A DNA stretch of 64,000 nt, from the IMG/VR virus record IMGVR_UViG_3300037484_000445, positions 64,001 through 128,000 of that record. One strand, 5' to 3'. A model generated the notes under the pieces. The model did not search any database. It was not told where the DNA came from and saw only the letters and a program-made list of their open reading frames with translations. This DNA comes from a virus. Its lineage: Duplodnaviria > Heunggongvirae > Uroviricota > Caudoviricetes. A program made the position numbers and the translations under genes. How positions within the stretch are numbered: the stretch's first letter is position 1; every line of letters starts with the position of its first letter. Positions 7,857 through 51,200 of the stretch are shown one piece after another.

Positions 7857-8371
7857 GCGAACTCTTCCGCACCCGGGACTGTGTCGTCCTTTTCAAGGGG
7901 GATGCCTACACAGTTTCTTTGTCGACAGCCCTACGCAACAACGGTTGGTCTGGTGGTCAAGGTGTGATGTGGGAAGACTCTTCTTTGGATGAGTTTCGTG
8001 TTACATTTTCCAACGGTCTCTACGGTGGGTTCTTGTTGTGGGGGTCTGACGAATCCTCGGATCAGTATGTCTCTTTCTTGAGGAATCAAGTAGTCGTCGG
8101 CGCCGGGGTGATTTGCTTGGGGGGTTGGTTGATCACTACGAGCACCTATGAGAAGTACACTTACACTTCTCGTACTGGTGGCGGACCCTTGATCCCAATC
8201 GTTTACCAAGAGGGCCTTCGTCTCAGGTTCTCTCTTAGAGGTCTTTGGACTATCGAGGATGAATGGAATTTGTCGAATCCCTTGACCTCCAACCCCTATT
8301 TCGTTGGATCTGTGACACAAGCGCCTAAGGCTTCGAACAACAACTATCTTGGTATTCAAACGTCAATCTAA
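7853..8371 (+). CDS. Capsid cement/decoration-like protein, paralogue 2
   Basis: Shares RTRDC..KGD, GW.GGQGV.W, GLYGGFLLWGSDE and YEKYTYTSRTGGGP with its neighbours. Confidence 0.65.
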   Translation: MSELFRTRDCVVLFKGDAYTVSLSTALRNNGWSGGQGVMWEDSSLDEFRVTFSNGLYGGFLLWGSDESSDQYVSFLRNQVVVGAGVICLGGWLITTSTYEKYTYTSRTGGGPLIPIVYQEGLRLRFSLRGLWTIEDEWNLSNPLTSNPYFVGSVTQAPKASNNNYLGIQTSI

Positions 8372-8895
8372 TGACTGAAATCATTCGAACCCGTAACTGT
8401 AACGTCTACTTCAAGGGTGACTCCACAACGGTCACCATTTCGGACGCTATGGTGGCTTCTGGCTGGGCTGGGGGTCAGGGGGTCCAATGGGTAGGGGCCG
8501 TTGGGGATGACCGCGTAGTAACCTATTCAAGTGGGTTGTACGGGGGTTTTCTCATTTGGGGCTCAGATGAGCCTGGTGATGACTTTGCGGCCATTACCCG
8601 GCAACAACCAGCCTATCGCTACGCCACCATGTGCTTTGGGGGGTCTCTACTGACAACCTCGACCTACGAGCGGTACACCTACGCTTCTCGAGTTGCGGGG
8701 GGTCCCCAGGTTCCGTTGACCTACAACATCAATGACCCACTGTACTTTTCATCTCGAGGTTTGTTCACCAACGAGGATGAATTGTCTCAACAAGTGCCTA
8801 TAAGCCTGTTGGCACCAGCATTCTTTGTGGGATTTGTGGCCCAAGTACCCAAGGCCTCTAACGATTATTGGTTGGGTGTTCAAACTAGTATGTGA
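8371..8895 (+). CDS. Capsid cement/decoration-like protein, paralogue 3
   Basis: Same motifs as the two preceding ORFs; TAATG coupling. Confidence 0.65.
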   Translation: MTEIIRTRNCNVYFKGDSTTVTISDAMVASGWAGGQGVQWVGAVGDDRVVTYSSGLYGGFLIWGSDEPGDDFAAITRQQPAYRYATMCFGGSLLTTSTYERYTYASRVAGGPQVPLTYNINDPLYFSSRGLFTNEDELSQQVPISLLAPAFFVGFVAQVPKASNDYWLGVQTSM

Positions 8896-31804: not shown

Positions 31805-31920
31805 GCTTAGGTCACGTTAGGGGGCCCTATTGTGGGCCCCCAGATGAACATCAAAACCCAGATCTACAGATCAGACTCAGAACTTTACGGCTCCTTCGGG
31901 GGTCGAGATTGGGATGCGAT

Positions 31921-32595: not shown

Positions 32596-34377
32596 ATGAA
32601 CACAGATGTAAGTGACTCTAAGGATACCTCTGCCGTCGAACGAGCTGCAAGACTAGCCAACAGTCCGGACCTTTGGAACGTTCTGTGGAAGTCTGAGGGT
32701 CAAGATACCTGGCGAAAACAGGCTTTGACGCAGGTTTACTCAAGAATCGTTCACCTGATGCCTCGAGAGGCGTCGGTCGTTGATTTGGGTGGTGGATTGG
32801 GTATCCTAGGCAAGCGTCTTCAAGGGGAGAAGAAGGCGAACGTAGTAGTCGCGGATCATAGTCCTGATGCCCTTCAGATCGCTTGTGAAGCGGGTTTAAA
32901 GACGGTCGAACTAGACTTGGAGGGGGACTACTCGATTGATCTGTTTGAGGGTACTACACCAATTCTAGTGGCCACTGAAGTAGCCGAGCACTTGAGCCAC
33001 GAGGCCAGGCAGACGCTCTTCCAGAAGGCAGCCCAGGCGGGTCACGCCTTTATCTCTGTGCCGAATGACCGTTTGGGTCCTGATGAAGAGCCTCAGCACA
33101 CGATCAAGTACACAGCCCTCGAGTTTCTAGAGGACCTAAAAAAGCATTTCGAGCACGTCCGTGTTGAGGCCTTAGGTCCTTACTTGTTAGGGGTCTGTGG
33201 TTGGAAGAAAGCCTTCACCCTATCGGTTACCTTTCCGTGCCGCGACGAGGCCGATGACATCGAGGCAACCCTCGCAAGCTTACGTGGGGTGGCGGATGAG
33301 ATCGTCATTGGGGTTGATCCTAGGACCTCGGACAACACTCGAGAGATTGCCCGTAAGTATGCAGAAGTAGTCTTCGATTTGGTGGATCCTGAAGGCCCTG
33401 AGGGTGACCAAGTCCCTTCTGGGGGTGTCCACTTTTCATGGATCCGCAACCAGTGTATGGACCGTTGTAAGAGCGAGTGGATCTTCATGACGGAGGCCCA
33501 TGAACGCCTAGTTTCTGGCTGGGATGCTTTACTCAACTTAGATCAGCTTCCTAAGCATGCACGGATTGGTTTCGTCCTACGCACGGGTAGCGACCAACAA
33601 TGGGCTTTTCCGTGGTTATGTAAGCAGGATCCCAAGATTCGCTACATTCGCCAGACCCACAACACTTTAGATTACCCTGCCGGTACCTACGTGATTCAAC
33701 TTCCGCAGGTTAGGACCTTGCATGAGAGGACTAAGGACCGCGAAATCCAGCGGCATAAGCAGCGTAAGGTTCAAAACCGTGTGACTCTTTTAGATGATTG
33801 GGTCACCCACGGCAATGAGAACTCATTGCACTATCTTGGGGCTGAATGGCGTGAGCACAACCCTACTAAGGCGATTGAGCGTCTCGAGGAGTATCTCAAT
33901 TTACCTAAGAAAAACGGGCCTATGCGTTACCATACGCGGCTCATACTCTCGAAGCTGTATTCTCAACAGAACGACCTTAAGAAGGCTCGTGAAGTCCTCA
34001 TGGGCTGCGTCGAGGACGATTGGAATCGAACTGAGCATTGGGTTAGATTAGGGGATATTGCTCATATCGAGGATCGTTTAGAAGAGGCCCTTCAGTGGTA
34101 CATCTACGCAGGAACCCGGGTGGGAGATCCACCTTTCACTCTTTGGTGGGTGGACCTACACATGTATTCGTGGATTCCGGCACAAAGATTGGCCATGGTC
34201 TACGGAGAATTGGGTTTGCTTGACAAATCTCTTTATTGGGCAACTAGGGTGTTAGAACTGCTTCCTGACAACGCTGAACCCTCGGCGTTCGAAGAGGCAC
34301 AAGCCAATGTCACCCTAATAGAGGAGGCAATCGAAAATGCAGGCCAAGGACATTCAGAACTCGCTGGGAATGCCTGA
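32596..34377 (+). CDS. Class I SAM methyltransferase + family 2 glycosyltransferase + TPR fusion
   Basis: VVDLGGGLG and EVAEHL (MTase); LSVTFPCRDEA...LASL..VADEIVI.VD...SDNTREIA and FSWIRN (GT2); C-terminal TPR-like helices. Confidence 0.85.
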   Translation: MNTDVSDSKDTSAVERAARLANSPDLWNVLWKSEGQDTWRKQALTQVYSRIVHLMPREASVVDLGGGLGILGKRLQGEKKANVVVADHSPDALQIACEAGLKTVELDLEGDYSIDLFEGTTPILVATEVAEHLSHEARQTLFQKAAQAGHAFISVPNDRLGPDEEPQHTIKYTALEFLEDLKKHFEHVRVEALGPYLLGVCGWKKAFTLSVTFPCRDEADDIEATLASLRGVADEIVIGVDPRTSDNTREIARKYAEVVFDLVDPEGPEGDQVPSGGVHFSWIRNQCMDRCKSEWIFMTEAHERLVSGWDALLNLDQLPKHARIGFVLRTGSDQQWAFPWLCKQDPKIRYIRQTHNTLDYPAGTYVIQLPQVRTLHERTKDREIQRHKQRKVQNRVTLLDDWVTHGNENSLHYLGAEWREHNPTKAIERLEEYLNLPKKNGPMRYHTRLILSKLYSQQNDLKKAREVLMGCVEDDWNRTEHWVRLGDIAHIEDRLEEALQWYIYAGTRVGDPPFTLWWVDLHMYSWIPAQRLAMVYGELGLLDKSLYWATRVLELLPDNAEPSAFEEAQANVTLIEEAIENAGQGHSELAGNA

Positions 34378-35872: not shown

Positions 35873-36768
35873 TGTCTGTAGCCTTCCTTCGTGGGCAGCA
35901 GCTAGGGACAAGCGATCTGGACATCAGTTTGGAGAACTCGTCATCGTATCCTATTAATGCCGCTGAAATCAGTTATGCCTTATATGATGTGACCACGGGG
36001 CAAGAGGTCCTTTTAGGGATCCCGAGGAGAGATCCAGCCAATGATAGCGTAGGGCACTACTACGCTAGTGTCATCATCCCCTTGGACGCCAACATCGGGG
36101 ACTACCGAATTCGTTGGACTTTTCGAGAGACGGTCGGGGGTCCTATACACTCAGTTGTTCAAGAGTTCAACGTCATCGATAAGGCTCAGGCTGCAACAAA
36201 TTGTTGTTGTGTTTCACAGCACGAGTTAGAGCTGATCCGTAGACTAAGGATTCTGCTTCGGGACAACAACCCCGATCGTAACTACCACTTCCGACCCCCA
36301 GCCCACGAAGAGACCATCCGACAGTTCAACCAGGTATTTGGGTTCATTTGGGAGGACTATGAATTGGAGGAGTTCCTCTTTAACGGCCTGGATATGGTCT
36401 CGGCGGCTCCCCCTAGGACGCCTATTCCAAACTTTGAGGTCCTCTATAACAACTACCCAGAGTGGCGAACGTTGGTCCTCAACGGGGCTATGATGTATGC
36501 CTTATTTGCTATGATGGTGAATTGGATTGCCGATGAATTCGACTACTCCATCGGTGGTGTGTCCTTGTCCATCGAGAAATCAAGCAAATACGAGTCGGCT
36601 TACCAAGCCATCAAGGATCAATTCGACACTCAGCTCGAACGAGCCAAACAGACGGTGAAGATCGTCAAGGGTTTGCAACAACCTCGCTTTGGTATTGGTA
36701 TTCGATCCTCTTTCGGCCCGTACGTCGGAGCTGGTGTCCTAAGTCCCCGTAAATTCGTGGGTTTCTGA
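35872..36768 (+). CDS. Probable head-tail adaptor/neck protein with N-terminal Ig-like domain
   Basis: LRILLRD...FIWED.EL...YSIGGVSLSI.K...Y resembles adaptor folds; TAATG coupling. Confidence 0.65.
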   Translation: MSVAFLRGQQLGTSDLDISLENSSSYPINAAEISYALYDVTTGQEVLLGIPRRDPANDSVGHYYASVIIPLDANIGDYRIRWTFRETVGGPIHSVVQEFNVIDKAQAATNCCCVSQHELELIRRLRILLRDNNPDRNYHFRPPAHEETIRQFNQVFGFIWEDYELEEFLFNGLDMVSAAPPRTPIPNFEVLYNNYPEWRTLVLNGAMMYALFAMMVNWIADEFDYSIGGVSLSIEKSSKYESAYQAIKDQFDTQLERAKQTVKIVKGLQQPRFGIGIRSSFGPYVGAGVLSPRKFVGF

Positions 36769-36782
36769 TCCGGCTAATCCTT

Positions 36783-36803
36783 TTATCGGATCGATCCCTG
36801 TGA
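36783..36803 (+). promoter_or_regulatory. Putative late promoter TTAT-N15-GA
   Basis: Exact motif upstream of 36819. Confidence 0.55.
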
Positions 36804-36818
36804 GCCCCTTGTGGGCAG

Positions 36819-37205
36819 ATGGACACCCAAATGACAAACGAGAAGCGTTCCCTTACGCCCGAAGATCCTGTAGACGCTGAGACCTTGGCTCAATTTGCTC
36901 GACTACAGGAGACCAAGCAACATCTGGCTTTGGTCTTGACTCAACTCGAGTTGGACAAGATCGAGATCCTTCGTTCTGTGAGTCGCATTGACGAGCAGAA
37001 TCGCAGGCTATTTGAAACATGCCTAGTTGATCGGGGTATTCCCCCCACCAACGATATTGAGATCGATTCCAAGACAGGCCGGCTTGTTCGCAAGAGAAGC
37101 CTTGAGGAAGTTACTGAACAGGCTCAACCCGTGCCTCCGCCTGAGGTTGCATCCGAGGTAATTGAACCTCCAGTTGAGCCTAGTGACCCTAAACCTGAGG
37201 GCTAG
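36819..37205 (+). CDS. Hypothetical coiled-coil protein
   Basis: 128 aa; TTAT-N15-GA upstream. Confidence 0.65.
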   Translation: MDTQMTNEKRSLTPEDPVDAETLAQFARLQETKQHLALVLTQLELDKIEILRSVSRIDEQNRRLFETCLVDRGIPPTNDIEIDSKTGRLVRKRSLEEVTEQAQPVPPPEVASEVIEPPVEPSDPKPEG

Positions 37206-37214
37206 AAGTTCCCC

Positions 37215-37235
37215 TTATGGGCACTCTTGATCAGA
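37215..37235 (+). promoter_or_regulatory. Putative late promoter TTAT-N15-GA
   Basis: Exact motif upstream of 37240. Confidence 0.55.
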
Positions 37236-37239
37236 GCCT

Positions 37240-38598
37240 ATGCCCTATGCCACTCAGCGCGATCGTGACCCTAGCATCCTAGAGGTGGAGCAGACGCCGT
37301 GGCCTGCTCCACCACTCTCATTGTTCTTGACTAGCGGGTACGTACCTGGGATTTTTGACCTAGTTTGGACAAATCCTTTGGATATGCGGTTGAACGCCCG
37401 CTTCCAAATCCTGGGCGTGAATCTCTATCGTTCGTTCGATTCCGAGTTCGGTCCTTATGACCGTGTGAATGAATTCCCAATAGGAACGACTTTTTGGCGA
37501 GACCAAACGGACAACGTAATGGTGCTCGATGAAGAGGTGACGGAAGACCGTTGGATCATTCAGGGCTACACGTCTGGATCTGAGTTGGAGGCACCGCGAT
37601 ACGTTTTTCGTACGGTGCATTGGCCTATCATTCAAGCTGGTTCTCAGAAGCTTCCCACGGCAAATCCCGACGACGTAGATGTCCGAATTGATGGACAACC
37701 TGCACGTATTGTGCGAATTCTTGGAGAGTCTGGCGAGATTGAGATCGATCCGAACGCCTATCCTGACGTAGCTACTCAAAGCAAGTATCCTGGCACTGTG
37801 CCTTCAACTACGTCTCAGGTGACTGTTAGCTATCGTTATACGCGGTCCTTCCTACGTACTGATCTCAGTCAGAGGGTTTTTTACCGGGTTACGGCCGTAG
37901 GTTATCTTGTAGACGCTAACGGTGGCATCGACTTGAACCAGTTGATGGAAACGCCTCTTGAGAGAGCCGCCTTCACCAGCAGCTATGAAATCGAGAAGAT
38001 CGACTACATATGGCGTGAAGCTGTCCGACGTAACCGTTGGATTCTCGACCAAGGTGGGGAACGAGTCAAGGTCTTCATCCGCAAGCGTGTAGGCATGACT
38101 TGCCCTTGCTACTCGACGACGACACACCATCAAGCTTTGGGTGATTGTATTTCTTGCTACGGTACGGGCATCATTGGCGGCTACGAGGGTCCATACGACA
38201 TCGTAATTGCTCCGGACGACTCCAACCGGAAGATAGCCTCGCAGGCTATGGGTGGCACCGTAGAACACACTTACGAGGTTTGGACGGGGCCTAGTCCTTT
38301 GTTAACCCAAAGGGACTTCTTCGTCAAAATCAACGGTGAACGCTACAGTGTTGGTGCTGTGAGGATGCCTACCAATCGCGGTATGGTTCTGCAGCAACAC
38401 TTCGATATAGGCCATCTCGATGAGAAGGACATACGGTACAAGGTCCCGGTAGATAGCTTGGTACACAGCTTGGCAAACCAAGCACAACTTTTGGTGCCCC
38501 CTCTCAATAGTCCAGCTCAGATTACGGACAAACCCAATATCCCAGATGAACGTGAGCTACGAGGCCGCAACATTGTTTGGGAAAACATCACCTACTAA
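37240..38598 (+). CDS. Probable head-closure/neck protein with FN3-like N-terminus and Cys cluster
   Basis: GGERVKVF.R...CPC...C..CYGTG..GGY followed by a beta-barrel region; neck position. Confidence 0.65.
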   Translation: MPYATQRDRDPSILEVEQTPWPAPPLSLFLTSGYVPGIFDLVWTNPLDMRLNARFQILGVNLYRSFDSEFGPYDRVNEFPIGTTFWRDQTDNVMVLDEEVTEDRWIIQGYTSGSELEAPRYVFRTVHWPIIQAGSQKLPTANPDDVDVRIDGQPARIVRILGESGEIEIDPNAYPDVATQSKYPGTVPSTTSQVTVSYRYTRSFLRTDLSQRVFYRVTAVGYLVDANGGIDLNQLMETPLERAAFTSSYEIEKIDYIWREAVRRNRWILDQGGERVKVFIRKRVGMTCPCYSTTTHHQALGDCISCYGTGIIGGYEGPYDIVIAPDDSNRKIASQAMGGTVEHTYEVWTGPSPLLTQRDFFVKINGERYSVGAVRMPTNRGMVLQQHFDIGHLDEKDIRYKVPVDSLVHSLANQAQLLVPPLNSPAQITDKPNIPDERELRGRNIVWENITY

Positions 38599-38599
38599 C

Positions 38600-39100
38600 A
38601 TGGTCTTCTTTCCCCGATTCCGTATCAACCTGAAGCCCCTAATCCCCGAGGGTATGGGTGATGTTGATGCTAAGAAAGTCCTGAAGGCCGTGCAGAAGGA
38701 GATCCTCAAGTCGCTTCAAGATGAGATCCAAGGTCAAGCCTTTTCCCACAGAGCTAAGGCGGCTTTAGCTAAGGGTATGACCACCAAGATGGGCCCCAAT
38801 AGCCTAACTGTCATTGCAACGCATCCAGCCTTTCTACCCCTTCTCGACGGGCAGAAGCGTCAGCAAATGACTTGGCTTACGAAGGCTAAGACACCCATAC
38901 CCATCATCTTGGACAACGGTGAATTGATCTTTCGAAACGCCACGCCACACTCTATGAATCGTGGGCGTTGGTATCACCCTGGGCGCCAGTCAACCACGGT
39001 TATCGAAAAGGCTCGTGACCACACGCGTGAGGTAATCAAGAAACGCTTAGCCAAAGAGCTTCAGCGTAGGCTCGGTAAGGCCATGCGGGGCGGAAGATGA
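38600..39100 (+). CDS. Probable neck/tail-completion protein (HK97 gp10-like)
   Basis: Basic protein with W.HPG near the C-terminus, following the head-closure gene. Confidence 0.55.
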   Translation: MVFFPRFRINLKPLIPEGMGDVDAKKVLKAVQKEILKSLQDEIQGQAFSHRAKAALAKGMTTKMGPNSLTVIATHPAFLPLLDGQKRQQMTWLTKAKTPIPIILDNGELIFRNATPHSMNRGRWYHPGRQSTTVIEKARDHTREVIKKRLAKELQRRLGKAMRGGR

Positions 39101-39684
39101 AGGGCGGTATGTTAGTCACCAAATCTTCTACGGGCTCGTTTCTCATTGAGGACATCAAGATCTGTGTTACTCATGGTGGTACGGGTACGTACATTTGTGC
39201 GGATGACGCCGTTAACTCTTCGGACCTTTACCGAGCCATCAACTCGGGTGTCCTAATGCTGTTGGTTGATTCTATGCCTCAGGTTCCTGTAAAGCCGGCC
39301 CAACAACCTGGATTCTCAAAAGAGGAGCTCCTACAGAACGAAAATCAGGAGCTTCGTGAGGCTCTAGCTCGCTCGACTCAACAGGGGGACTCCCTTCAGA
39401 CGAGTATGTCCTCGTTGCAGGACCAGCTAACCACTCTTTTGGCCGCCGTAGGGCGCATAGAGACGGCGCCTAAGGCCGTTCAGACCATAGTCGTAGCAGA
39501 AGGTCAGGCAAGGTCTGTCCAGGCTCAAGAGCCTTCTGAGAGGCTCCCTGTGTTCGTTCCCGATGATTTGATCCCTAAAGATGCGGAAGTACGGATCAAC
39601 TTCCACACAGAGACCGCTGAGGAAGACACGACTTCAGACACCGTTAGTAAACTGCGGGAGTTACGTCGAAGGAACAAGGGTTGA
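39097..39684 (+). CDS. Coiled-coil hypothetical protein
   Basis: Central heptad region LQNENQELREAL...LQDQL; basic C-terminal helix VSKLRELRRR. Confidence 0.65.
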   Translation: MKGGMLVTKSSTGSFLIEDIKICVTHGGTGTYICADDAVNSSDLYRAINSGVLMLLVDSMPQVPVKPAQQPGFSKEELLQNENQELREALARSTQQGDSLQTSMSSLQDQLTTLLAAVGRIETAPKAVQTIVVAEGQARSVQAQEPSERLPVFVPDDLIPKDAEVRINFHTETAEEDTTSDTVSKLRELRRRNKG

Positions 39685-39719
39685 TCTTTTGATGGCCCCT
39701 TGTTTCATGTGAGGTATTT

Positions 39720-40382
39720 ATGTCCGCGAATTCTAGTGAGAGCCAGAAGGTTGTTTGGTACGCCCCGACAGACTATGATGCCCTGAAGCACGGGCCTCCC
39801 TACTTGCCCCCATCGGGAGCAGTCAAGCTGAGCTCTGAGCAACGAGCGAGCATAAAGACCCATATCAAGCAAGCCGCCTTCTATGACGCTCCATCAATCA
39901 TGGACCCAGGAGCTTCGAGTTCAACACACCTGACCCAACTCTTAGGGCTTCTTCAAGCTTTGGCCATGTTGCATCAGGCACACCATTGGAACACTAAAGG
40001 TTCTGCCTACTACGCTGATCACTTGTTGTTCGAGCGATTGTACAACGATTCCGTCGGCTTTATCGATGGGTTAGCTGAAAAGGCTTTGGGCCTGAAAGAA
40101 ACTGTCACGGTCATAGCCGTGAATCAGGCTCAAATCATTCACGAGCTCTTAGCTTTTTTCGGTCAGGGTTCCAACCCCGATGAGATGGTGGCTATCAGTC
40201 TGAAGGCTGAGATGGTCTGTTTGAACTGCATAGCCAAGGTGCTGGACACCAAAGAGCTAGAGGGAACCCTTTCACACGGCCTTTCGAACATGTTGGAAGG
40301 GGTCGCAGATAAACATGAAGAGTTCGTTTACCTTTTGCAGCAACGTCACTCCGACCAGGTCTATAACTACGACCGTAGGTAG
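39720..40382 (+). CDS. Dps-family ferritin-like protein with N-terminal extension
   Basis: Exact Dps ferroxidase spacing H-x11-H-x14-D-x3-E (HWNTKGSAYYADH...D-GLA-E). Confidence 0.85.
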   Translation: MSANSSESQKVVWYAPTDYDALKHGPPYLPPSGAVKLSSEQRASIKTHIKQAAFYDAPSIMDPGASSSTHLTQLLGLLQALAMLHQAHHWNTKGSAYYADHLLFERLYNDSVGFIDGLAEKALGLKETVTVIAVNQAQIIHELLAFFGQGSNPDEMVAISLKAEMVCLNCIAKVLDTKELEGTLSHGLSNMLEGVADKHEEFVYLLQQRHSDQVYNYDRR

Positions 40383-40395
40383 AACGCGAGCGACA

Positions 40396-40782
40396 ATGTC
40401 CTCAGCCAAGCCCAAAAAGGCGACCAAGTCTCGACGTCGTGAGACTGACTTGGAACGCCTTTTCAGGCCATTGTTGGAGGGTGTTAGCCACAAGTTTCGA
40501 ACTAAGGCCACAGTACGTGGCCATTCAGTGGACTTTTTGTTTCAGGGTATCAAGCTTGCCGTTCAGATCTACGATGACTGTTGGCACGCCAATCCGGAAG
40601 TCTATGGTCCTGGGAAGATCCCTGTTACCAAGATTCAGCGAGATATACGTCAAAAAGACGTGAAAATCGACGATGCCTTACAGAAGGCCGGTTATCGAGT
40701 CGAGCACTTTTGGGAGCTGGACTTGAGGACTCGTTTATCTGACTGCAAGTGTAGAATCGACCAGATCATAGGAGAATGTAAA
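40396..40782 (+). mobile_element. Vsr/DUF559-like endonuclease domain fused in-frame to the actin gene
   Basis: E..F..LL...VDF...KLAVQIYDDCWH...KD......L.KAGYRV..FWE; no stop before the actin ATG. Confidence 0.7.
40735..40755 (+). promoter_or_regulatory. Putative late promoter TTAT-N15-GA inside the Vsr coding region, ahead of the actin start
   Basis: Exact motif followed by AGGAG and in-frame ATG 40783. Confidence 0.55.
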
Positions 40783-41784
40783 ATGGAAAACCAGAAGTTT
40801 GGGGTAGGTCTCGATATAGGTACGATGAACATCGTTTCGGCGAGGAAGCCCACGGGAACGCCGTCCTTCAATAACATTCGAGACGCCTTTTTGGACTTAG
40901 AACTCGATGCTAAGAGAAGCTTGAAGCTCTCTGACGTGAACTATGTCGAGCGTAATGGTTCTCTGGTCGTTGTAGGCGATGAGGCTCTTACGATGGCCAA
41001 CTTGTTCAAGCGAGAGGCTAGACGCCCCTTGTCCAAGGGTGTCGTTTCTTCGGGTGAGGTCGACGCCCAAGAAATTCTGAGCATTCTGATTCAGACAGCT
41101 CTAGGTAAGCCCTCTGTTGCAGGGGAGCACTGCTTCTTCAGCGTTCCTGCATCACCGTTAGATGACCCCACACAGGATGTGATTTATCACACAGAGGTGT
41201 TTCGCTCGATCATCGCTTCATTGGGATACACCCCACATCCGACGAATGAAGCCATGGCTATCATCTTCAGTGAATGCGAGAATGTCAAGTTTTCTGGGCT
41301 TAGCATCAGTTTTGGTTCGGGTATGGCCAATGTGGCGCTGGCCTACCAAGCCATGGAAGCCATGTCCTTCAGCTTGGCACGTGGCGGCGACTTCGTAGAC
41401 CAGCAGTCGGCTAAAGCTGTGGGTAAGACAGCTAGTCAGATGTGCTCGATCAAGGAACGAGGCGTGAACCTAGCGGCACCCGAAGGACGAGACCAACAAG
41501 CTATTGCCTTGTATCTCAAGTCTCTGATTAGCTACACACTTCAGAAAATCAGTGCCCAGTTTAGGGTGATGAAAAACTCCATTGATCTGCCTGAAGCCAT
41601 CCCCTTCATCATCTCGGGTGGCACGTCCAAAGCCGGAGGCTTTATGGATGTCTTCCAGGGGGAATTTGACAAGATTCGAAGTAGCTTTCCGATCAAGATC
41701 AGTGAGGTCCGTCAAGCTAAGGAACCACTTAGAGCAGTGGCTAATGGGCTCTTGGTCTTGGCTTTGGAGGAGCACGAAGGCTAA
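40783..41784 (+). CDS. Actin-like ATPase (volactin/MreB/MamK superfamily)
   Basis: Phosphate-1 GLDIGTMN, connect-1 NEAMA, phosphate-2 ISFGSGM, adenosine IISGGTS, connect-2 AVANG. AGGAG RBS at 40770-40774. Confidence 0.88.
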   Translation: MENQKFGVGLDIGTMNIVSARKPTGTPSFNNIRDAFLDLELDAKRSLKLSDVNYVERNGSLVVVGDEALTMANLFKREARRPLSKGVVSSGEVDAQEILSILIQTALGKPSVAGEHCFFSVPASPLDDPTQDVIYHTEVFRSIIASLGYTPHPTNEAMAIIFSECENVKFSGLSISFGSGMANVALAYQAMEAMSFSLARGGDFVDQQSAKAVGKTASQMCSIKERGVNLAAPEGRDQQAIALYLKSLISYTLQKISAQFRVMKNSIDLPEAIPFIISGGTSKAGGFMDVFQGEFDKIRSSFPIKISEVRQAKEPLRAVANGLLVLALEEHEG

Positions 41785-42957
41785 GTGTACTACTACCTCG
41801 TCCAGGCCCTAAAACGTCGGCTCATCCTTGAGTTGAAGGATAGCTTTGGTAAACACCCGATTTACCAGAAGATAACGCCTTTCATTCAAAACCGCTTCTC
41901 GTTTGAAGAGCGGCCTCAGTATGGCATCGTCGTCAAAGGGTCAAGCACCAGTAAGGTGGTACTTTCGGGGGACAACTTCGTAGGCAATCTTCAAAGCCAT
42001 GTGATGTTGGCTTATGTCGGTCAAGAGGTGAACCCTATTGAATGGGTACGTGAAGATCTTAAGGCTATAACCAAGAACAAGGGTATGCCTACTCTGCCGG
42101 GAGTCTACTACATTGAGATCTTGACGGCCCCAACGCTTCCTGGTGAGTCTGGTTATTTCATGGTTGACCCTCTACTCACGGTGAATGATGAGCCCGTTCT
42201 CATGTTTCAATCCGGTGTTGAACGTGAGGCTCAGCTACAACGGGCCCCGACGCCCAATACCCTAAGGCTATACGAAAATAGAAACTACCTTCTTCGTGAA
42301 GGTGTTGACTACACGGTAGATTATGGAACGGGTGCTATTTCCCTAATCACGACGTTCGGTGTTGGATCTACCTTGTCTGCTGACTATCGCTATCCTGGTG
42401 AATCCGTAGGACCTATAGAGTTTTTGTGGAACACAGCGGATCTGACTACTTTGCCAGGGGTTGTCATGGCTTTCGGTAAGAGAGCCGCCGATGGGCAAAA
42501 GGTAGCTGTGGTGGTTTATGGGGACCGTGTTGACGCAGCCCTTGTTTATGGCGGTAAGAACGAAGTGTCCTTCGACATGGACGTGATATCTCGAGATCCT
42601 ACACAGATGGAGGAGATCTCGGACTTAGTTCAGATGTACCTCTTGAAGCGAAAGTCGCTTTTGGAGTTCGAAGGTATTGAACTGCTCGATGTCTCAATGG
42701 GTGGTGAAGGTGAAGAACTCGCGGATGAGACCGGAGAAAACTTCTTCTACCAGGCTTCTATGTCCGTTCAACTTCGAGCGGATTGGGAATTCCACGTACC
42801 TTTGCCTCTGACGATAAGTAAAGCCACACCAGTTAGACCCCAAGGGGAGCTTGATCCAAATTCACAGTCGGGGATCATACAGGTTGCGGGAGACCTGTTC
42901 TTCCTGACCCATGATGCCGTCGAAAAACGTAGTGATGACTACGAGAGGATCGGCTAA
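41785..42957 (+). CDS. Probable tail terminator/completion protein with inserted Ig-like domain
   Basis: Upstream of the sheath; LREGVDYTVDY.TG.I insertion; terminator-like C-terminal beta region. Confidence 0.6.
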   Translation: MYYYLVQALKRRLILELKDSFGKHPIYQKITPFIQNRFSFEERPQYGIVVKGSSTSKVVLSGDNFVGNLQSHVMLAYVGQEVNPIEWVREDLKAITKNKGMPTLPGVYYIEILTAPTLPGESGYFMVDPLLTVNDEPVLMFQSGVEREAQLQRAPTPNTLRLYENRNYLLREGVDYTVDYGTGAISLITTFGVGSTLSADYRYPGESVGPIEFLWNTADLTTLPGVVMAFGKRAADGQKVAVVVYGDRVDAALVYGGKNEVSFDMDVISRDPTQMEEISDLVQMYLLKRKSLLEFEGIELLDVSMGGEGEELADETGENFFYQASMSVQLRADWEFHVPLPLTISKATPVRPQGELDPNSQSGIIQVAGDLFFLTHDAVEKRSDDYERIG

Positions 42958-43374
42958 ATGCCTAAATTTACATTCGAGTGCAAATGTGGCCTAAATTTCT
43001 CACGCACCTTGAAGATGGGGGATCACAAGACGTTTGAGTGTCCTTCTTGCCATGAGGAAGCCCCTCGAGTGTGGGAGAGCTTTGGATTTAGCTTCGCCCC
43101 CGGGGGTTCGGCGCCAGCTAACAGTGGGGTATCTAAGCACGATTACCCTAGTGCTGACCAAATTGTAGGGTCTGATGCCGACAAACGTTGGCAGATCTAT
43201 CAAGAACGAGAAAAAGTGAAGGGTACTGTCCGAAAAGTGGGGGGTAATAGGGCTTTGGTGCGAAAAAACGGCAAGGACTTCATCGAATACTCAGCTGGCA
43301 GCCAAAAGACCATTGAGACCCGTAAGGGCCTAGCGACCGAGCTGTCGAACATTCTGAAGCGTCCCCCTGCTTAA
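42958..43374 (+). CDS. FmdB-family zinc-ribbon protein
   Basis: MPKFTFECKCG..F...CPSC. Confidence 0.75.
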   Translation: MPKFTFECKCGLNFSRTLKMGDHKTFECPSCHEEAPRVWESFGFSFAPGGSAPANSGVSKHDYPSADQIVGSDADKRWQIYQEREKVKGTVRKVGGNRALVRKNGKDFIEYSAGSQKTIETRKGLATELSNILKRPPA

Positions 43375-43521
43375 CACCCAATAATTCCTTGTTGGGCACA
43401 GTCCTTGTGAGACCTGGGTTTCTACCCGGGCCAGATGCAGACCAAGATCAGATCCAAAGAGCCCTCGATATAGACCCAAATCGACAACGCCGGTTTATTG
43501 CCGGCACACAAGGAGTTCAGG

Positions 43522-46500
43522 ATGGCCGCAGGTCTTGGTCCGTTTACTACGTATGTACCCCCTGGTGTTTACACTCGGACTCTTTCCGAGGCCAATGCTG
43601 CCAACCTGGTAGCAGGGCTTAGAATCCCTGTCGTAATTGGTGTCGGTCAAGAAGAGCTAGAACAGGATGACCTTGAGTTAGTCCGCGGTTCCAGTGCCAA
43701 CCTCGACCAACAGATCGTCAATGAAGACGTCTCGGCTCGATTCGTTGTCGACTTCACCAACCCGAACAACCCTATCCTCGGCGCGGCCAATGGAACCGTA
43801 ACTCGTTTCCGGGTAAGAAACTTCCCGATCGTTGACGGCCAGGGATTCGGCCGTGTGACCAATAACGTTCGAAGCGTTTCGGTCACCATCAACGGCAGTC
43901 CAGTGGCTGTTGGTGCGGTTCAAGGCCAGGGCGGTTACGTCATTCTTCAGGTGCCCCCGCAAACGGGCGACAACGTTCGTGTCACCTACTACTTCCACCG
44001 CTCGGACACCGCTTTTACGGACGATGTTTCGGAGCAAGTAACCGCATCTCAGGCTGAATTGATCACTCCTGGGTATGCCCCATTCGTTGTTACGACGGGT
44101 GTGACGGATACCTTTACTCTGAACATCGACGGTACCGACACAACTCTTTCCTTCGCCGCGGGTAGCTACACGGCTTCAGGCCTCAAAACCCTCATCGACT
44201 CCAATCTGATCACTGGCTTGGCGACGGCAGTTTTCACGGACAACCAGGGCCTCGACCATATCAAGTTCATCTCGGCTCGTAGCTTGACGATTGGTACAGG
44301 CAACGCCAACGGCGCTCTAGGTTTTGCCGCTGGGACAACGACCACTCGTAATGCTAGTTTCCGTGTTTTTCAGCGTCCTATTGTGGACGGTACGGACGGT
44401 GGTATCACCACCACGGATACGACCAAGGTCGTGGTTACGGTCAACAGTGTTCAGGTGGTTGCCTCGTCTGTGGACGGTACCAACGGCATTGTCACCCTTC
44501 CCTACGCCCCGGCGGCGGGATCCACGGTCAGGATTCAGTACTTTGCCAACACCTGGCAAGACACGTTTGACTACCTGCCGAATACGCTGGTAACCAACGT
44601 CATTCGTTGTGGTTTTGCCACGGGACGTAGTGACTTCATTCAGGGTCAAGACTTCGTGGTTTCCAACCCAAGTCCGGATGTGTCGATCCTGCATTGGGGT
44701 GCCAGCTACGTAGCCGCCTCTGCACAGAGAACTGCTGGGGCAACGCTCTTCAATGACACTCAGATTCTTCCGACTCTCGTGGACAACAAGATGTTCATGG
44801 CGGCGGCGGATCGTGTCATTGACACGACGGTAGTTCCAGCATTGGTTTCTACCAACAAGTTCACGCTGCCTGAGGTCCCAACGACTGGTAACGGTCGAGA
44901 CACGCCCCTAGGTTCGGCGTTGTATAGCGAGGTAACCAACGGTCGTATTGGTCTCAACACCAACCGACCCGACCTGGTTTCGGTCTACACGGGTCGCAAT
45001 ATCTTGGATGCCCTTGGTAGGGCTCCTGCTGTCGTGACCGAGGTTGATGGTGCCACTCGGCAGATCACCCTCAAGAACGAGGTTCCTCCGGATCACCAAG
45101 CGTTCTGCACGTTCTACTACAACCGTCTGCAGGATGACACCTTCATCCTAACCAACCTTGTCTCGGGTCCTATCGGTACGGGTCAGTTCGAAGTCCTTAG
45201 TACGCTCACGGGCACGAATGTTCTCCAAGTTCGTTTTGGCACCAAGACGGGACTTCCAGAAACGATTCAGTGGCCGCGTGGGGTAGAGACGGTACCGGAT
45301 GCCTTCCACACAGGTGCTGGCACGCCAGTATCGGAGACGGTTACGGTTACTTTCGGACAGACCACGGCTCAAAACGCTGTGTTCACGAACGAGGGCGCCG
45401 CTCCGTACTCTTTCTACCAGACGACTTCGGATCAGTGGGGAACGACGGTCAACGGCAACCCTTATGTGACCAACCTGTTTAGCCCTGCTAACGGTTATTT
45501 GGTCTCGTCTCGGGTTGAGGTAGACGGCTCCAACCAAATCACAATCCCCGTTGCACCGAACAACGTCCTTTCGGTGGCTTTCGGTGGTGCAACTTCCGCT
45601 ACTGGTACGATCACGGTCGTAGCTGGATCGGCTCTTGTGGACACCGAAACCTTCACCCTAAATGACGGTGTGAATCCGGCAACGATCTTCGAGTTTGATA
45701 GTGGTGGTGGCGTAACGCCTGGTCACGTCGCGGTGGCTTACACAGCCTTGGACACCATAGCTACCGTTCGAACCTCTGTGATTGCAGCCATCAATGGTGT
45801 GCTTGGAACACTGCTCATTACAGCGGCTCCTTCGGCAACACCTGGTGTCATCAACCTGATCAATGATGGCGTGGGTGCCGCTGGCAACCAAGCTATCACC
45901 GAGACAGTCGCTGATGTTGGCTTCATCGTCACGGGTATGGCAGGTGGCGTTGGAACGCAGTCCAACATATCCATCACAGCCGGTGCTCGCACACCGGCTC
46001 AAATTGTGTCGGACATCAATACGGCTTTGGGCTCGCCCTTGGCTTCGTTCCGTCAGATCGGTGGTATCAACGGTCCGGTGTTCTTCCTCATTCAGACCAA
46101 CACCATTCCAGCGGTTCTGCCTGGTGGTTTTGATCACGCCTCAACGGTTTCAATCCGTCAAGGTACGGTCGAAAATGTCCTTGGTTTTAGTACGTTCCAG
46201 TCGGCTACGGGTACGCCAACGGCTACCAACAAGCCAGCTACGATCCTTGGAACTTTGGCAGGTCCGTTCATTATCACGACGGGTGTCAACGACCAGTTGA
46301 ACATTCGCCTAAATGGCATCGACTATACGGTAACCTTGCCGGCGGGTGTGGCAGTTACGGCAGCAGCTGTTGCTGCGGCTATCAATCTGGTGCCTGGTCT
46401 GGCGGGTGTGTCCTCGGTAGGTACGTTGGCGAACTTGAACAAGGTTCGCCTTACGAGTGGCCTTACGAACCCAAGCTCAAGCATCCGGATCTTGGCTGGT

Positions 46501-48144
46501 TCGGCTAACATTGTTCTCGGTTTCACCGAGGGAACCATAGCTAGCCAGACTTTGGTCGGTGCCCAGGAAGTTACCAACGCCATCAACGCTACAGCAGGCT
46601 TCGCCACCGATGGTGTTGCCTATGTTAGTGCCATCGAAGGCCAACAGTACGTCACGATCGAGTCTCTTACGACAGGGGCTGCTACCTCGACCGTAGCCTT
46701 TGCTACGGGCGTAGGAAGTGCCTTCAACACGACCACAGGAACCAAGATAGTTCCTGGAACCAGTGGTGATAATGGCGAAGACATCGAGGACAACTACACG
46801 GTAACCTCTTCGCTGTCTCCGGTTCTGCATACCCAGGGATCTTACGGAATTGGCTACCCGGGACAAACCTACACGGATGTAAGGACAGGACTCCGGTTCA
46901 CGATCCTCGTATCCAATGTGGGTGGCTACACGAATGGTGGATCGTTCACCATGGAAGTCAGCCCGACTTGGAAGGTCAACCCCGCGGTTCCTTACATGTC
47001 GATCCCGGGTCTCGAGACAATCGTTACGGACACGGTGGGCGTCGGCGTAAACGACACTGCGACCCTCCAGACGTTCGATCCCGGTGGTCTCGAACCAGCG
47101 ATTGGAGACTTCTACTACGTCTCTTACCGCTACATGAAGCAGGACTTCTCAACACGTCTGTTCCAGACGTTCAAGACGATCGAGGCAGAGTTTGGTCCAA
47201 TCTCGGCCGAAAATCGGGTAACCCTGGGCGCCTCTTTGATGATCCAAAACGGGGCGGTCCTCGTGGGCATCAAGCAGGTTCTCAAGGTCACCAACACTAA
47301 CCAGGCTTCGGACGCATCGTTCATCCAGGCTATCAATGACCTGGCAACACCGCTTCCGGGAAACATCAAGCCCAATGTCTTGGTCCCCCTTACGACCAGC
47401 ACCACCGTCTACTCGGCTCTTATGCAGCACTGTGCTGTTCAGTCGGGGATCCGGAACCAGGCTGAGCGTATGGGCTTCATCGGGTTTGCCTCGGGGACTT
47501 CTCCGACTTCAGCTCAAACGGTTGCCAAGGCTCTCCTGTCGAACCGCATCATCGCTGTCTACCCAGATTCCGCTGTGATTACAATCACAAACGAGCTTGG
47601 GGAAAACTACGAAACCCTGGTCGATGGCACCTTCTTGGCAGCGGCCTTGGCGGGTTCGGCCGTAAGTCCTGCGGTCGATGTGGCAACACCTTACACTCGT
47701 CGTCGCATTCTGGGCTTCACGCGATTGCCTCGTATTCTTGACCCTGTTGAGGCCAATCAAACGGCCACGTCGGGCATCACGGTCTTCGAGGACCTCAGCA
47801 CCACGATCCGCGTTCGTCACGGCCTAACCACGGACATGACCAATGTGCTGACCCGTCTGCCAACGGTCACGCAGATTGCAGATTATGTGCAGCAACAGAG
47901 CCGTTCGACCCTCGATTCCTTCGTCGGTACGAAGTTCTTGGCGAGCCGCACGAATGAGGTGGAAGTCTCGATGACCTCCTTGTTCAAGCAGCTCATCCAG
48001 GCTGAGATCGTTGGAGCCTTTGCGGGTATTACGGCAGCAGTTGACCCCGATGACCCAACGGTACTCAGGTTTGAGGCTTTCTATCAGCCGATCTTCCCGC
48101 TGTTGTACCTCTACCTGACCTTCAACCTACGTAGCAAGCTGTAG
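43522..48144 (+). CDS. Contractile tail sheath protein with large inserted beta domains
   Basis: N-terminal YVPPGVYT; C-terminal sheath core (ERMGFIG, TTD......V.QIADYV, FVG, YQPIFPLLY); AAGGAG RBS; about 1540 aa. Confidence 0.9.
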   Translation: MAAGLGPFTTYVPPGVYTRTLSEANAANLVAGLRIPVVIGVGQEELEQDDLELVRGSSANLDQQIVNEDVSARFVVDFTNPNNPILGAANGTVTRFRVRNFPIVDGQGFGRVTNNVRSVSVTINGSPVAVGAVQGQGGYVILQVPPQTGDNVRVTYYFHRSDTAFTDDVSEQVTASQAELITPGYAPFVVTTGVTDTFTLNIDGTDTTLSFAAGSYTASGLKTLIDSNLITGLATAVFTDNQGLDHIKFISARSLTIGTGNANGALGFAAGTTTTRNASFRVFQRPIVDGTDGGITTTDTTKVVVTVNSVQVVASSVDGTNGIVTLPYAPAAGSTVRIQYFANTWQDTFDYLPNTLVTNVIRCGFATGRSDFIQGQDFVVSNPSPDVSILHWGASYVAASAQRTAGATLFNDTQILPTLVDNKMFMAAADRVIDTTVVPALVSTNKFTLPEVPTTGNGRDTPLGSALYSEVTNGRIGLNTNRPDLVSVYTGRNILDALGRAPAVVTEVDGATRQITLKNEVPPDHQAFCTFYYNRLQDDTFILTNLVSGPIGTGQFEVLSTLTGTNVLQVRFGTKTGLPETIQWPRGVETVPDAFHTGAGTPVSETVTVTFGQTTAQNAVFTNEGAAPYSFYQTTSDQWGTTVNGNPYVTNLFSPANGYLVSSRVEVDGSNQITIPVAPNNVLSVAFGGATSATGTITVVAGSALVDTETFTLNDGVNPATIFEFDSGGGVTPGHVAVAYTALDTIATVRTSVIAAINGVLGTLLITAAPSATPGVINLINDGVGAAGNQAITETVADVGFIVTGMAGGVGTQSNISITAGARTPAQIVSDINTALGSPLASFRQIGGINGPVFFLIQTNTIPAVLPGGFDHASTVSIRQGTVENVLGFSTFQSATGTPTATNKPATILGTLAGPFIITTGVNDQLNIRLNGIDYTVTLPAGVAVTAAAVAAAINLVPGLAGVSSVGTLANLNKVRLTSGLTNPSSSIRILAGSANIVLGFTEGTIASQTLVGAQEVTNAINATAGFATDGVAYVSAIEGQQYVTIESLTTGAATSTVAFATGVGSAFNTTTGTKIVPGTSGDNGEDIEDNYTVTSSLSPVLHTQGSYGIGYPGQTYTDVRTGLRFTILVSNVGGYTNGGSFTMEVSPTWKVNPAVPYMSIPGLETIVTDTVGVGVNDTATLQTFDPGGLEPAIGDFYYVSYRYMKQDFSTRLFQTFKTIEAEFGPISAENRVTLGASLMIQNGAVLVGIKQVLKVTNTNQASDASFIQAINDLATPLPGNIKPNVLVPLTTSTTVYSALMQHCAVQSGIRNQAERMGFIGFASGTSPTSAQTVAKALLSNRIIAVYPDSAVITITNELGENYETLVDGTFLAAALAGSAVSPAVDVATPYTRRRILGFTRLPRILDPVEANQTATSGITVFEDLSTTIRVRHGLTTDMTNVLTRLPTVTQIADYVQQQSRSTLDSFVGTKFLASRTNEVEVSMTSLFKQLIQAEIVGAFAGITAAVDPDDPTVLRFEAFYQPIFPLLYLYLTFNLRSKL

Positions 48145-48205: not shown

Positions 48206-48257
48206 CCTCCTCTAACTTTCTACTTATCTAGCCCTTTTGGTGTAAGGGACCCTCCTG

Positions 48258-51200
48258 ATGCAACTCACAGAGCAACCCATGGCTATCGTGGCGGCGGAAG
48301 AAGAAACTGAGGAGCCCCTTGGTGAATTCCAAGTCGCTGAATACATCATTTTCATTCTTGCCCTCGATACATACATGCGGTACGCCGAGGAAACCTCGGG
48401 GGTTGATGACATTGAAGACCAAGTCATTCATAAGGGTATGCGTATCCTACGTATGGCTGAGACGGAGATTGAACGTCTTCAAGCTTTTCTTCAGGAGCAT
48501 CTCGAGACTAACACTCAACAGTCAATGCTCCGTCGTGCCCTGACTATGACGGTGGCCACGACTGCAGGGATCTCGAGGAGAGCCTTGCAGTTCAGGACTC
48601 TTCTATCGAGGGGTGGGCCAGCTACAATCAAGGGGATCTTCACCTCACAGAAGTATATTCGACAGGTTCGTGAGGCCATCACGGCTTCAACGCTCTCTGA
48701 TGCTGATGCTGCCTTGGACGTCTTTGCTGCCCTGCCTATAAAGAACGCCAGGATGCGCAATTGGATCGACATAGCAGCCAAGCAGGCTGGTTCGGGCATA
48801 GCAGCTCCGGCGCCTGTGGACAATGCAGCCAATGAGGTAGTAGCTGCTCCCGAGATCACGAACACGAGTTTGCAAGGGGCTGCGGCTTCTGGAGCTTCTG
48901 ACGCCAAGGATTCTCAAGACAATCGGGCAGCCATGCTCTCGAGGGTTCAGACCGATGCCACGGAGGCTGCCCGAAAATCCTTGGAAATCAACCAGCAACC
49001 GGACACGCCCCCTATTCAGTCCGAGGTTGTTGGTATTGCCACGGCAGCAGCCGTAGCGGCCATCAGCGACCCGCTTCTCTCTCAGAACGTCCCAGCCCCC
49101 CTACGTAAGCTAGACGACGAGCAGAGGGCAGCAGCGGTCACGGATGGCAGGGTCCTCGTAGCGGCCGGTGCTGGCGCTGGTAAATCGACGACCCTTGTAG
49201 CCAGGATCGAGTATCTTGTAAAGGATCGACGAGTTCTCCCGAGTCGTATCCTGGCCACATCCTTCAACAAAAAGGCAGCCAGCGAGCTGAGAGAAAAGAT
49301 TGGCCGGACATCAGGTGGTGATGCCCTGACCCAAATGAGCGTCGGTACCATGCACGGGTTGTTCCGGAAGTTCATTGGTAGCTACGGAACCACTGCCGAA
49401 CAGATCGCCGTTGGTGCCTCACGAAGTCCTAATGGGTTCATTGAGGGGGGTGCTTCTGTAGCTCGTACGGTACAACGTATGTGGGAAGAGTGCTACGGGA
49501 AAGACGAGCCAGCACCTAAGCTCAAAGATGTCATGCGTTACAAGAGCTTGTGGGCAGGGAACAACATTCCTCCAGCTCAAGCTCGGGCAGAGGCCAAGAC
49601 TAAAAAAGAATCTGAGGCAGCCCTTTGGTACGAAATGTATGAAGGGCTCAAGGGAGCCATTCCTGGGTGGGATCCTCCTTGTAGAGGTCGAGCCTATGAA
49701 GGCTTCATGGCACGCTACCGTCCTCGAGACATTCGTCTAGGAGACTTTGACGACATGTTGAACATCTTCCACGCGGTTCTCAAGCGGGAACCAGCCGTAA
49801 GGAAGACTATTCAATCCATGTACGACCACATCATGGTCGATGAGGCCCAGGATCGTAATGCCGTTCAAGCCGAAATCATCGATATGATCTCGGAGCACAT
49901 AGGTGACGGTTCTGACGGACGATCACTTTGGGTTGTGGGCGACGACAAGCAATGTGTTCAAGAGGACACTCCTATCTCAATTGATGAAGAGCATCAAGTC
50001 CCAGCTAAAGACCTCAAGGAGGGGGATACTGTCCTATCTTACCGAAACGGATCCTTGGTTAAACAGGTGGTTCGTTGTGTTAAACCCAGTTTTTGGGCGT
50101 CCGGTTATTGTATCACAACATCTAGTGGTCGAAGCCTCACAATGTCTCCAAACCACAAGATCTGGGCTCAAAGCCCAGTACTTAGTGGTAATCAAGTAGC
50201 TGTCTACCTGATGTTCCGCAAGGACTTTGGCTTTCGCGTAGGCATCACTAATAAGTGTCATGATGAGGAGTATCTGAATTCCTTTGGTGGTCGAGCTTTC
50301 ATGGAGAAAGCTGAACGTATGTGGATTTTGGAGGTGTGCCAAGACCGTGAGACAGCCCTTCTCGTTGAAGCTCGCTATTCTCTCAAATACGGCGTACCAA
50401 CAGCGGTGTTTGGTGGAGAGAATCGCGGACTCAACCAAGATCGTATAGATCAGCTATTCAAGGAGTTTGGTGCTAACGGGTATCAGGTTTTGGAGGCTAA
50501 ACACTTGAGCTTCGACCTCCCTCATTGGCTTAGTCAATCTTACACCAAACACGGTCGAGGTCGGCGTACTGTCCAGATGACGGCACATGGGGGTAAGGGC
50601 TCACAAGTGAGCTTAGAGTGGTCTGGCGACGACTTGGACTCTAAATTAGAGCATGTGGCATTCCATCAGAATGGCGAACGTCGTCGAATTCGAAAGTGGT
50701 TTGCTAGCTATCGAGAAGCTCTGGATTTTGCTGAACACGTTTCGGAACTTGCTGAAGCCAATCTATCTCGTCGACTGTCGACAGATAGTGGTGTGATTCG
50801 TTTGCTTACAGCATCGGGGCTATTCCCGGGTATGCAAGTTGCTGTTCTTGATACAGGTACAGTGTGTTTGGAGGAAATACTCTCAGTTGAAGAGGTCAAG
50901 GGCTCGTTCATCGATCTGGATGTTGATGATGCCTCTAACTTTTTTGGTGGGGGTATTCTCTCACACAACAGTATTTACGGATTCCGTGGAGCCCGACCAG
51001 ACTTGTTCTCCGATTTGAATGGTAAAGAGGGTTGGAAGACCCGAATGATTCGCACTAACTATCGCTGTGAGCCAGAGATCGTTGAAGCTGCTAATCGTTT
51101 GGTTGCTCACAATGAGGGGCAGATTCCAATGGAAGCCGTCCCGAGTCCGCACAAGACTCGAGGAGTTGGCAGCATTGCGGTGACCAATCCCAGTGATGAA

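Follow-up and report, generated by a model that had tools for sequence, protein, structure and literature searches.

It was found that an actin gene of the volactin family (40783..41784) lies among the neck and tail genes of a very large phage. The window analyzed here is a 64,000-nucleotide stretch (64001-128000) of an uncultured virus record that is 451,925 bp long and an estimated 94% complete, and all features of the locus lie on its plus strand. The gene at 39097..39684, which encodes a protein of 195 amino acids, very probably specifies the adaptor of this actin. The best explanation as a whole is that the two genes form a cytoskeletal module of 0.4-0.5-Mb myophages which serves assembly, and I would give it an even chance.

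Judged by its sequence, 40783-41784 is an intact volactin-family actin gene, present as a single copy in the genome and ending with the stop codon at 41782-41784. Its 333-residue product matches the Pfam Volactin profile PF25216 with 242.7 bits (E 9e-72; cut-off 35) from residue 8 to 327, covering profile positions 3-321 of 321. The MreB_Mbl profile PF06723 stayed below its cut-off (14.9 bits vs 27), and no mreC or mreD genes adjoin. A sequence-only reading of this DNA had listed five actin motifs, and all of them are in the frame of the ATG at 40783: GLDIGTMN (residues 9-16), NEAMA (155-159), ISFGSGM (175-181), IISGGTS (276-282), and AVANG (318-322). The invariant positions are D11, G13, T14, E156, S176, G178, G180, G279, and G280. 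In an alignment with three haloarchaeal members, the family-type phosphate-2 motif SFG[AS]GM and the RGGD motif are present; phosphate-1, the catalytic E156, SFG[SA]GM, and GGT are common to the phage actin and the haloarchaeal volactins. Planctomycete members of the family are 42-44% identical to the phage actin, and haloarchaeal members 37-38%. Thus, the assignment to volactin rather than to ParM or MreB, which that reading had proposed, now stands on the profile match, the tree described below, and the alignment. An AlphaFold2 model (pLDDT 90.9, pTM 0.89) confirmed the actin fold by structure search, with best VIA Z scores for BeeR (26.0), crenactin (24.1), and MreB (23.9). BeeR of Verrucomicrobiota (PMC11929497), MreB, MamK, and crenactin are the best structural matches (Z 20-26, TM about 0.67-0.70) but share 16-19% identity with the phage actin and belong to other families. 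Sequence searches of PDB, PHROGs, and NCBIfam gave no match for the actin. Viral-structure relatives were also sought by a BFVD fold search, which returned only distant Hsp70/ParM-like proteins such as gp506 of phage G (11%).

The model of the putative adaptor shows, with confidence, a small alpha/beta domain (residues 4-56), then a helix of coiled-coil type (75-123) and, behind a flexible linker, a C-terminal helix (179-193), in agreement with the earlier description of 39097 as a coiled-coil protein with a C-terminal helix. It is encoded upstream of actin in 79 of 80 distinct phage loci, and in divergent phages without a Dps gene it abuts or overlaps the actin gene (-10 to +62 nt). Across the 79 orthologues, conservation falls on the N-terminal domain and on P151, P155, V179, A182, L186, R187, and R190; the C-terminal motif consists of P-F-I-P, a strand, and a V..A...LR.LR helix. 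When the actin was modeled with adaptor residues 143-195, the ipSAE was 0.90 in three runs, while the best control reached 0.01. At least 88% of the contacts are common to the runs, and the partner pLDDT is at least 70. The ipSAE mark is reached by 58 of 80 solved pairs and 2 of 110 mismatched pairs, a calibration that applies roughly here (own alignments, ligands). In the model, adaptor helix 179-190 contacts actin residues 162-170, 189-190, and 321-333, and adaptor residues 162-174 run along actin strand 25-32. By actin-fold homology, the helix would dock in the cleft between subdomains IA and IIA, and I regard the predicted adaptor-actin interface as highly probable. One locus without actin (L260) has an orthologue cut to 124 amino acids, in which the N-terminal domain is kept and the motif is gone; among 106 N-terminal-domain matches, it is the only one that lacks the motif. 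The suggestion that 39097 acts as an adaptor through its C-terminal helix thus gains from the shared motif, the complex model, and this co-loss. A wide fold search with the whole adaptor gave generic coiled coils only. Paralogues of the N-terminal domain among the phage's own head proteins were unsupported (best hhalign probability 4%). The phage partner in another locus (L193) begins with a hydrophobic helix.

Is this motif common in other volactin loci? A hidden Markov model (HMM) of the phage C-termini only was run on 3917 six-frame open reading frames (ORFs) of 24 other loci. The top ten were all actin-adjacent genes, namely those of planctomycete coiled-coil proteins and of haloarchaeal DUF7139 proteins. 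Taken singly, their E-values are weak (2e-4 to 0.4), and the planctomycete loci are related to one another, but several lineages agree. The haloarchaeal DUF7139 (CdpA-like) proteins, encoded upstream of volactin on three plasmid loci, carry the helix motif twice (L186 4917-5825, L187 4791-5690, and L188 4971-5894). Volactin VolA (HVO_2015) of Haloferax volcanii belongs to the same Pfam family PF25216 with the atypical phosphate-2 SFG[SA]GM; the haloarchaeal and phage actins share both the family and an upstream partner with the strand-helix motif. In contrast, the haloarchaeal partner has four membrane helices while the phage partner is a soluble alpha/beta plus coiled-coil protein, and no DUF7139 was found among the 79 phage partners. 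The phage actin also differs from volactin in being viral, in lying among virion genes, and in forming a separate clade. In haloarchaea the motif sits on a membrane protein, and in these phages on a soluble domain of viral type whose gene is one of the neck block. Volactin filament tips are known to attach to the membrane by way of unidentified factors (PMC10869688), and in H. volcanii the CdpA-like HVO_2016 adjoins volactin (PMC12126565). From their sequences, the haloarchaeal DUF7139 proteins are candidate membrane anchors of volactin tips. In an Omnitrophota volactin locus (L177 7962-11328), a motif-bearing partner lies downstream and is followed by a ParA/Soj-like ATPase.

The actin had been placed between neck genes and the tail terminator, and this placement holds well beyond the window. 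I collected 1451 actin homologues, many of them on 0.3-0.5-Mb contigs. The order is near-invariant: a 452-residue neck protein, a 184-residue neck protein, the adaptor, optional inserts, actin, the terminator, a zinc-ribbon protein, and the sheath. The optional inserts before actin are a Dps gene (55 of 80 loci), a small repeat protein gene (40 of 80), and a nuclease gene. The terminator lies downstream of actin in 84 of 89 distinct loci. Among loci fetched via the neck gene, 46 of the 47 that have both flanks contain actin (not de-duplicated); a scan started from the terminator gene yielded only two loci. The median identity among relatives is 60% for actin, 59% for the sheath, and 57% for the terminator. 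In a FastTree tree, the phage actins form a clade apart from the haloarchaeal and planctomycete clades; the tree is without an outgroup and its deep forks are open, and thus no donor or direction of transfer is claimed. The own deep clade, the inteins described below, and an identity of about 60% like that of the sheath speak against a recent capture from a host. Some contigs filed under Thermoplasmatales, Heimdallarchaeota, and Legionellales metagenome-assembled genomes (L179, L183, L163, L164, and L165) look phage-like, and family counts there may be inflated.

Two features of the locus had been missed by the earlier reading, the Dps-like gene at 39720 and a fusion of the actin to a nuclease. 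In the window, the actin gene forms the 3′ portion of a 462-amino-acid ORF without internal stops, which starts at the ATG of 40396 and whose codons 1-129 (40396..40782) encode a Vsr/DUF559-like nuclease domain (TIGR00632, E 2.6e-8; DUF559, 21.2 bits). Since the nuclease is in frame with actin and no stop intervenes, the promoter-like motif and the ribosome-binding site (RBS) of actin lie inside a coding sequence. The same fusion occurs in two relatives (L197 and L198), making three phages in all, and its nuclease part is under purifying selection (dN about 0.2, dS at least 1.8, with synonymous sites saturated). About nine other phages have a free-standing nuclease of the same type, 270-360 amino acids in length, which ends just before actin. 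In the fused domain the W-H histidine is retained, as are E and D in the first motifs, but the Q-x-D-G turn of the free-standing nucleases reads Y-D in all three fusions. The domain appears to be a shortened remnant of a homing-type nuclease. It is likely that in a sub-lineage such a nuclease was inserted before actin, then lost its N-terminal part and its stop codon, and now carries the promoter-like motif and RBS of actin. A form skipping the nuclease was not found among contigs of four DNA runs, all of which have the same arrangement, although its absence is not thereby shown. The ORF at 40396-41784 may yield a DNA-binding minor form of actin. Inteins with LAGLIDADG or HNH domains were found in the nucleotide site of phage actin homologues, near phosphate-2 (P0121, P0122, P0124, P0126, P0131, and P0153). 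Together with the free-standing and fused nucleases, these suggest that selfish elements repeatedly target the actin gene. Selfish elements usually target conserved genes.

The earlier reading had also given the actin its own late-type promoter. The exact TTAT-N15-GA (40735-40755) and the AGGAG (40770-40774), 8 nt before the ATG of 40783, were confirmed. The bare motif occurs at chance level across the window (22 vs 19.0 ± 4.3), while it precedes structural genes in 6 of 69 leaders, compared with 0.9% of random windows and 2 of 246 other leaders; this enrichment is partly circular because the motif was picked from the same window. It may be a late promoter element on that account. In the embedded segment 40720..40782, 12 of 15 conserved codons are identical in the three synonymously saturated phages, where 4.1 are expected (P 2e-5) and the best window elsewhere has 10. 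The identical codons include the rare TTA and AGA, while elsewhere all-TTA leucines number 0 of 127 and all-AGA arginines 1 of 94. The RBS region (19 nt) is invariant in the three fusion phages. By this codon-level constraint the expression signal is real here, and free actin is probably the main product, with the nuclease-actin fusion as a probable minor one. As a clade-wide actin promoter, however, the motif had to be rejected, for it precedes only 2 of 116 actin genes. Since actin mostly lies close behind the previous stop codon, it is normally co-transcribed. Thus, the own promoter survives in the three nuclease-fusion phages, where it is constrained at the DNA level, but not for the clade; in terms of its sequence, the TTAT-N15-GA/AGGAG signal is a local feature of the fusion phages.

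Other leader elements were found in the clade. CARAY repeats, a motif chosen by eye, number 1.0 per 70 nt in actin leaders and 1.4 in sheath leaders, compared with 0.1-0.5 for other neck genes and 0.26 for random sequence. They are possibly a shared translational or transcriptional control site. CARAY (CAGAT/CAAAT) tracks lie at 43432-43500 and 31841-31900 of the window, as well as in the actin and sheath leaders of relatives. The gene position, the start of the terminator at the actin stop codon, and the CARAY leaders common to the sheath point to a late or assembly role, and actin is probably expressed late. Directly 3′ of the adaptor stop codon, a pyrimidine-rich CTTTTGAT element (39685..39693) is a candidate promoter variant for the Dps and downstream genes; a TTT[TG]AT element occurs in 15 of 55 Dps leaders and is kept in L197 and L198. 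TGGTGTA is strongly enriched shortly before start codons, in 10 of 69 leaders of the 30-200 kb region (0.7 expected) and 22 of 246 elsewhere. Its sites lie around 48230-48250 of the window and in many leaders outside it, and it is a second promoter-like element.

How might the two proteins work together? The actin would bind ATP and form dynamic filaments like volactin or ParM, a property expected from the observed family. The C-terminal strand and helix of the adaptor are predicted to bind subdomain IA and the cleft between IA and IIA, and the coiled coil would dimerize or space the adaptor. The ParR peptide binds the polymerization interface of ParM at the barbed end (PMC9178275), and the adaptor helix is predicted to lie in the homologous barbed-end cleft. 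By homology the adaptor should thus cap or hold filament tips. The phage pair differs from ParM/ParR/parC of plasmid R1 in its 13% structural identity, in an adaptor without a ribbon-helix-helix, in a strand that additionally pairs with subdomain IA, and in having no parC array. The small N-terminal domain would grip the cargo, most likely a procapsid, neck, or tail intermediate, which would be positioned or moved late in infection. Look-alikes of this domain are virus-only (Atlas feature search scores below 0.9), and its fold matches are weak but mutually consistent: YqbF-N (Z 3.7), GINS-B, and the C-terminal part of lambda gpFI (gpFI-C, Z 2.3). gpFI is a prohead-bound protein (PMC4856287). 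The adaptor model shows a small alpha/beta domain instead of a ribbon-helix-helix or helix-turn-helix, no iteron or centromere-like array was found in 36500-43600 (degenerate arrays could be missed), and the domain stays among neck genes when actin is lost (L260). The virus-only look-alikes, the likeness to gpFI-C, a model that is neither ribbon-helix-helix nor helix-turn-helix, the missing iterons, and the retention among neck genes favor a virion intermediate; whether the cargo is an assembly intermediate is evenly poised.

Several points weigh against a module for assembly. In the cultured phages Tunturi_5 and G, neck, terminator, and sheath genes come in the same order, yet the pair is missing and so is every PF25216 gene; the pair is thus dispensable for building such virions. 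In other phage lineages the pair is found outside structural blocks, next to NrdD, DnaB, or glycosyltransferase genes, and thus the neck position may be an inherited accident. The N-terminal-domain matches have Z below 4 and equally fit GINS-B or L9-N, the complex score may be due in part to a resemblance to solved ParM-ParR or actin-WH2 complexes, and the co-loss in L260 amounts to one event, on a contig that is 14% complete. Actin folds also serve non-filament roles, as in PilM, EutJ, and Hsp70.

The alternative that fares best is DNA positioning like that of AlpC/AlpA or ParM/ParR, in which the adaptor or the fusion would link filaments to the DNA of the phage and so serve replication, packaging, or carrier-state partition. 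I consider it unlikely. The same logic of an actin with a C-terminal-helix adaptor is found in ParR (PMC9178275) and AlpA (PMC4446434), and the adaptor tail is basic; however, the basic helix is predicted to be spent on actin, the N-terminal-domain model is neither a ribbon-helix-helix nor a helix-turn-helix, and no iteron array was found in the 36.5-43.6 kb region. Although the fusion joins actin to a DNA-binding nuclease fold under purifying selection, only three phages have it. A tyrosine recombinase in the genome and the position of the pair near replication genes in other lineages would also fit DNA positioning, but AlpAC is early while the pair here lies amid late genes. AlpC/AlpA of the Corynebacterium prophage CGP3 (PMC4446434) is likewise a phage-encoded actin with a co-encoded adaptor; it differs as an early, DNA-linked prophage actin with the centromere-like alpS, whereas the actin here belongs to the volactin family among late genes, with no iterons found.

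The actin could instead be a non-polymerizing ATPase or chaperone that stays monomeric or forms small oligomers, binds the adaptor in the manner of PilM-PilN or FtsA-FtsN, and aids neck or tail assembly. The fold search also returned PilM, FtsA, EutJ, and Hsp70, and the fixed neck position and the coupling to the terminator would suit such a role. The adaptor is predicted to cover a surface with which ParM polymerizes, and tight binding could block filaments. Yet the top fold matches are filament formers, the 333-residue chain has no FtsA/PilM-type insertion domains, and dynamic filaments are formed by VolA (PMC10869688), the nearest characterized relative, the identity to haloarchaeal members being 37-38%. 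A non-polymerizing actin is thus quite unlikely, and by analogy the actin very likely forms filaments.

The two remaining alternatives are improbable. Filaments might reshape, stiffen, or reorganize the host, or act on a host volactin (e.g., of a planctomycete), making room for very large virions or blocking division. VolA does affect cell shape (PMC10869688), Planctomycetota and Omnitrophota cellular members use the same adaptor motif, and some phage partners start with a hydrophobic helix like that in L193, but the adaptor here is without a membrane segment and the phage clade is apart from the cellular clades. It is similarly doubtful that the actin and adaptor are virion parts (neck, inner body, or ejected proteins), for although the gene position, the leader repeats common to the sheath, and the N-terminal domain kept without actin would allow it, cultured relatives build the same architecture without the pair, the adaptor consists largely of coiled coil and disordered stretches (29% identity), and I know of no actin-fold virion protein.

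The neighboring genes are consistent with a neck and tail block. Upstream lie the conserved neck-region protein of 452 amino acids (37240..38598; 28% identity to Tunturi_5 gp322 and 26% to phage G gp175, with weak PHROG virion matches) and a tail-completion/Neck1-like protein (38546..39100, start probably 38612; PHROG 5, E 0.026; in 74 of 80 loci). A ferritin/Dps-like protein gene (39720..40382; PF00210, 25.6 bits; PHROG 3636; weak Dps models) is an accessory insert between adaptor and actin, missing from divergent phages. Its product has a conserved N-terminal GPPYLP motif (also L005 8339-8700). The small repeat protein encoded between adaptor and actin in other phages is lysine-rich (LWKY...SPY.GK). 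The tail terminator gene (41785..42957; 30% identity to Tunturi_5 gp324 "tail terminator") starts at the base directly after the actin stop codon and is followed by those of an FmdB-type zinc-ribbon protein (42958..43374; PF09723, TIGR02605) and the probable tail sheath (43498..48144, start probably 43519), which was identified by order and size from the sheath position in Tunturi_5 and phage G. After the sheath comes a 1418-amino-acid UvrD-like helicase (48258-52514), compared with 1060-1140 amino acids in relatives, with an intein-like insert seen by eye.

Elsewhere in the window are the terminase (5097), portal (9378), prohead protease, and major capsid protein (19347) genes. The major capsid protein is 82% identical to that of huge phage LR745208, 49% to that of Acidobacteria phage Tunturi_5, and 39% to that of Bacillus phage G. 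Three tandem paralogues of about 173 amino acids each lie between terminase and portal (7335-8895), and a methyltransferase-glycosyltransferase-TPR fusion lies inside the structural region (32596-34377). The virion is of the myophage type. Two sigma-70-like genes and a single gene for a tyrosine recombinase were identified in the genome, with no match to ParA or ParB. At least the first 100 bases of the record (region 1-272) recur near the contig end (from 451652), which suggests a terminal repeat and a nearly complete genome, though the record is classed as linear. Close strains were met in DNA runs from freshwater sediment and wetland.

Among large lytic phages, the cytoskeletons characterized so far are built of tubulin. 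In nucleus-forming jumbo phages, a spindle of the tubulin PhuZ serves positioning and capsid traffic (PMC7950403). The phages analyzed here likewise have a conserved cytoskeletal gene in a very large genome, and an analogous job is proposed for it. They differ from the PhuZ phages in having an actin instead of a tubulin, two sigma-70-like genes, and a phage G-like capsid; tubulin (PF00091) and RNA polymerase beta (PF00562) gave no match in the 94%-complete genome, divergent versions and ChmA lying outside that search. Phage actins with adaptors (AlpC/AlpA, PMC4446434) and volactin are each already known. No paper on a volactin-family actin in phages was found, most subscription literature being outside the search, and two surveys of huge and jumbo phages (PMC7162821, PMC7824862) make no mention of actin. 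By title or abstract, the 14 volactin papers listed do not deal with phages either. Particular to this window are the fusion of nuclease and actin with the signal inside it, the co-loss in L260, and the leader repeats.

In its widest form, the explanation holds that in a clade of huge lytic phages an actin cytoskeleton, as a counterpart of the PhuZ spindle, carries capsids or tails via a capsid-binding adaptor, and that the strand-helix motif is a universal volactin tip-binder, combined with different cargo domains in phages, planctomycetes, and haloarchaea, which identifies the archaeal membrane anchor; this is tentative, its chances being somewhat short of even. Fixed in the virion-gene block of about a hundred sampled phages of 0.4-0.5 Mb, a volactin-family actin would give giant phages another, independent means of organizing the infected cell, doing the job that the PhuZ tubulin does in other jumbo phages. 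The shared motif also points to the adjacent CdpA-like protein as a candidate volactin tip anchor, in a genetically tractable organism.

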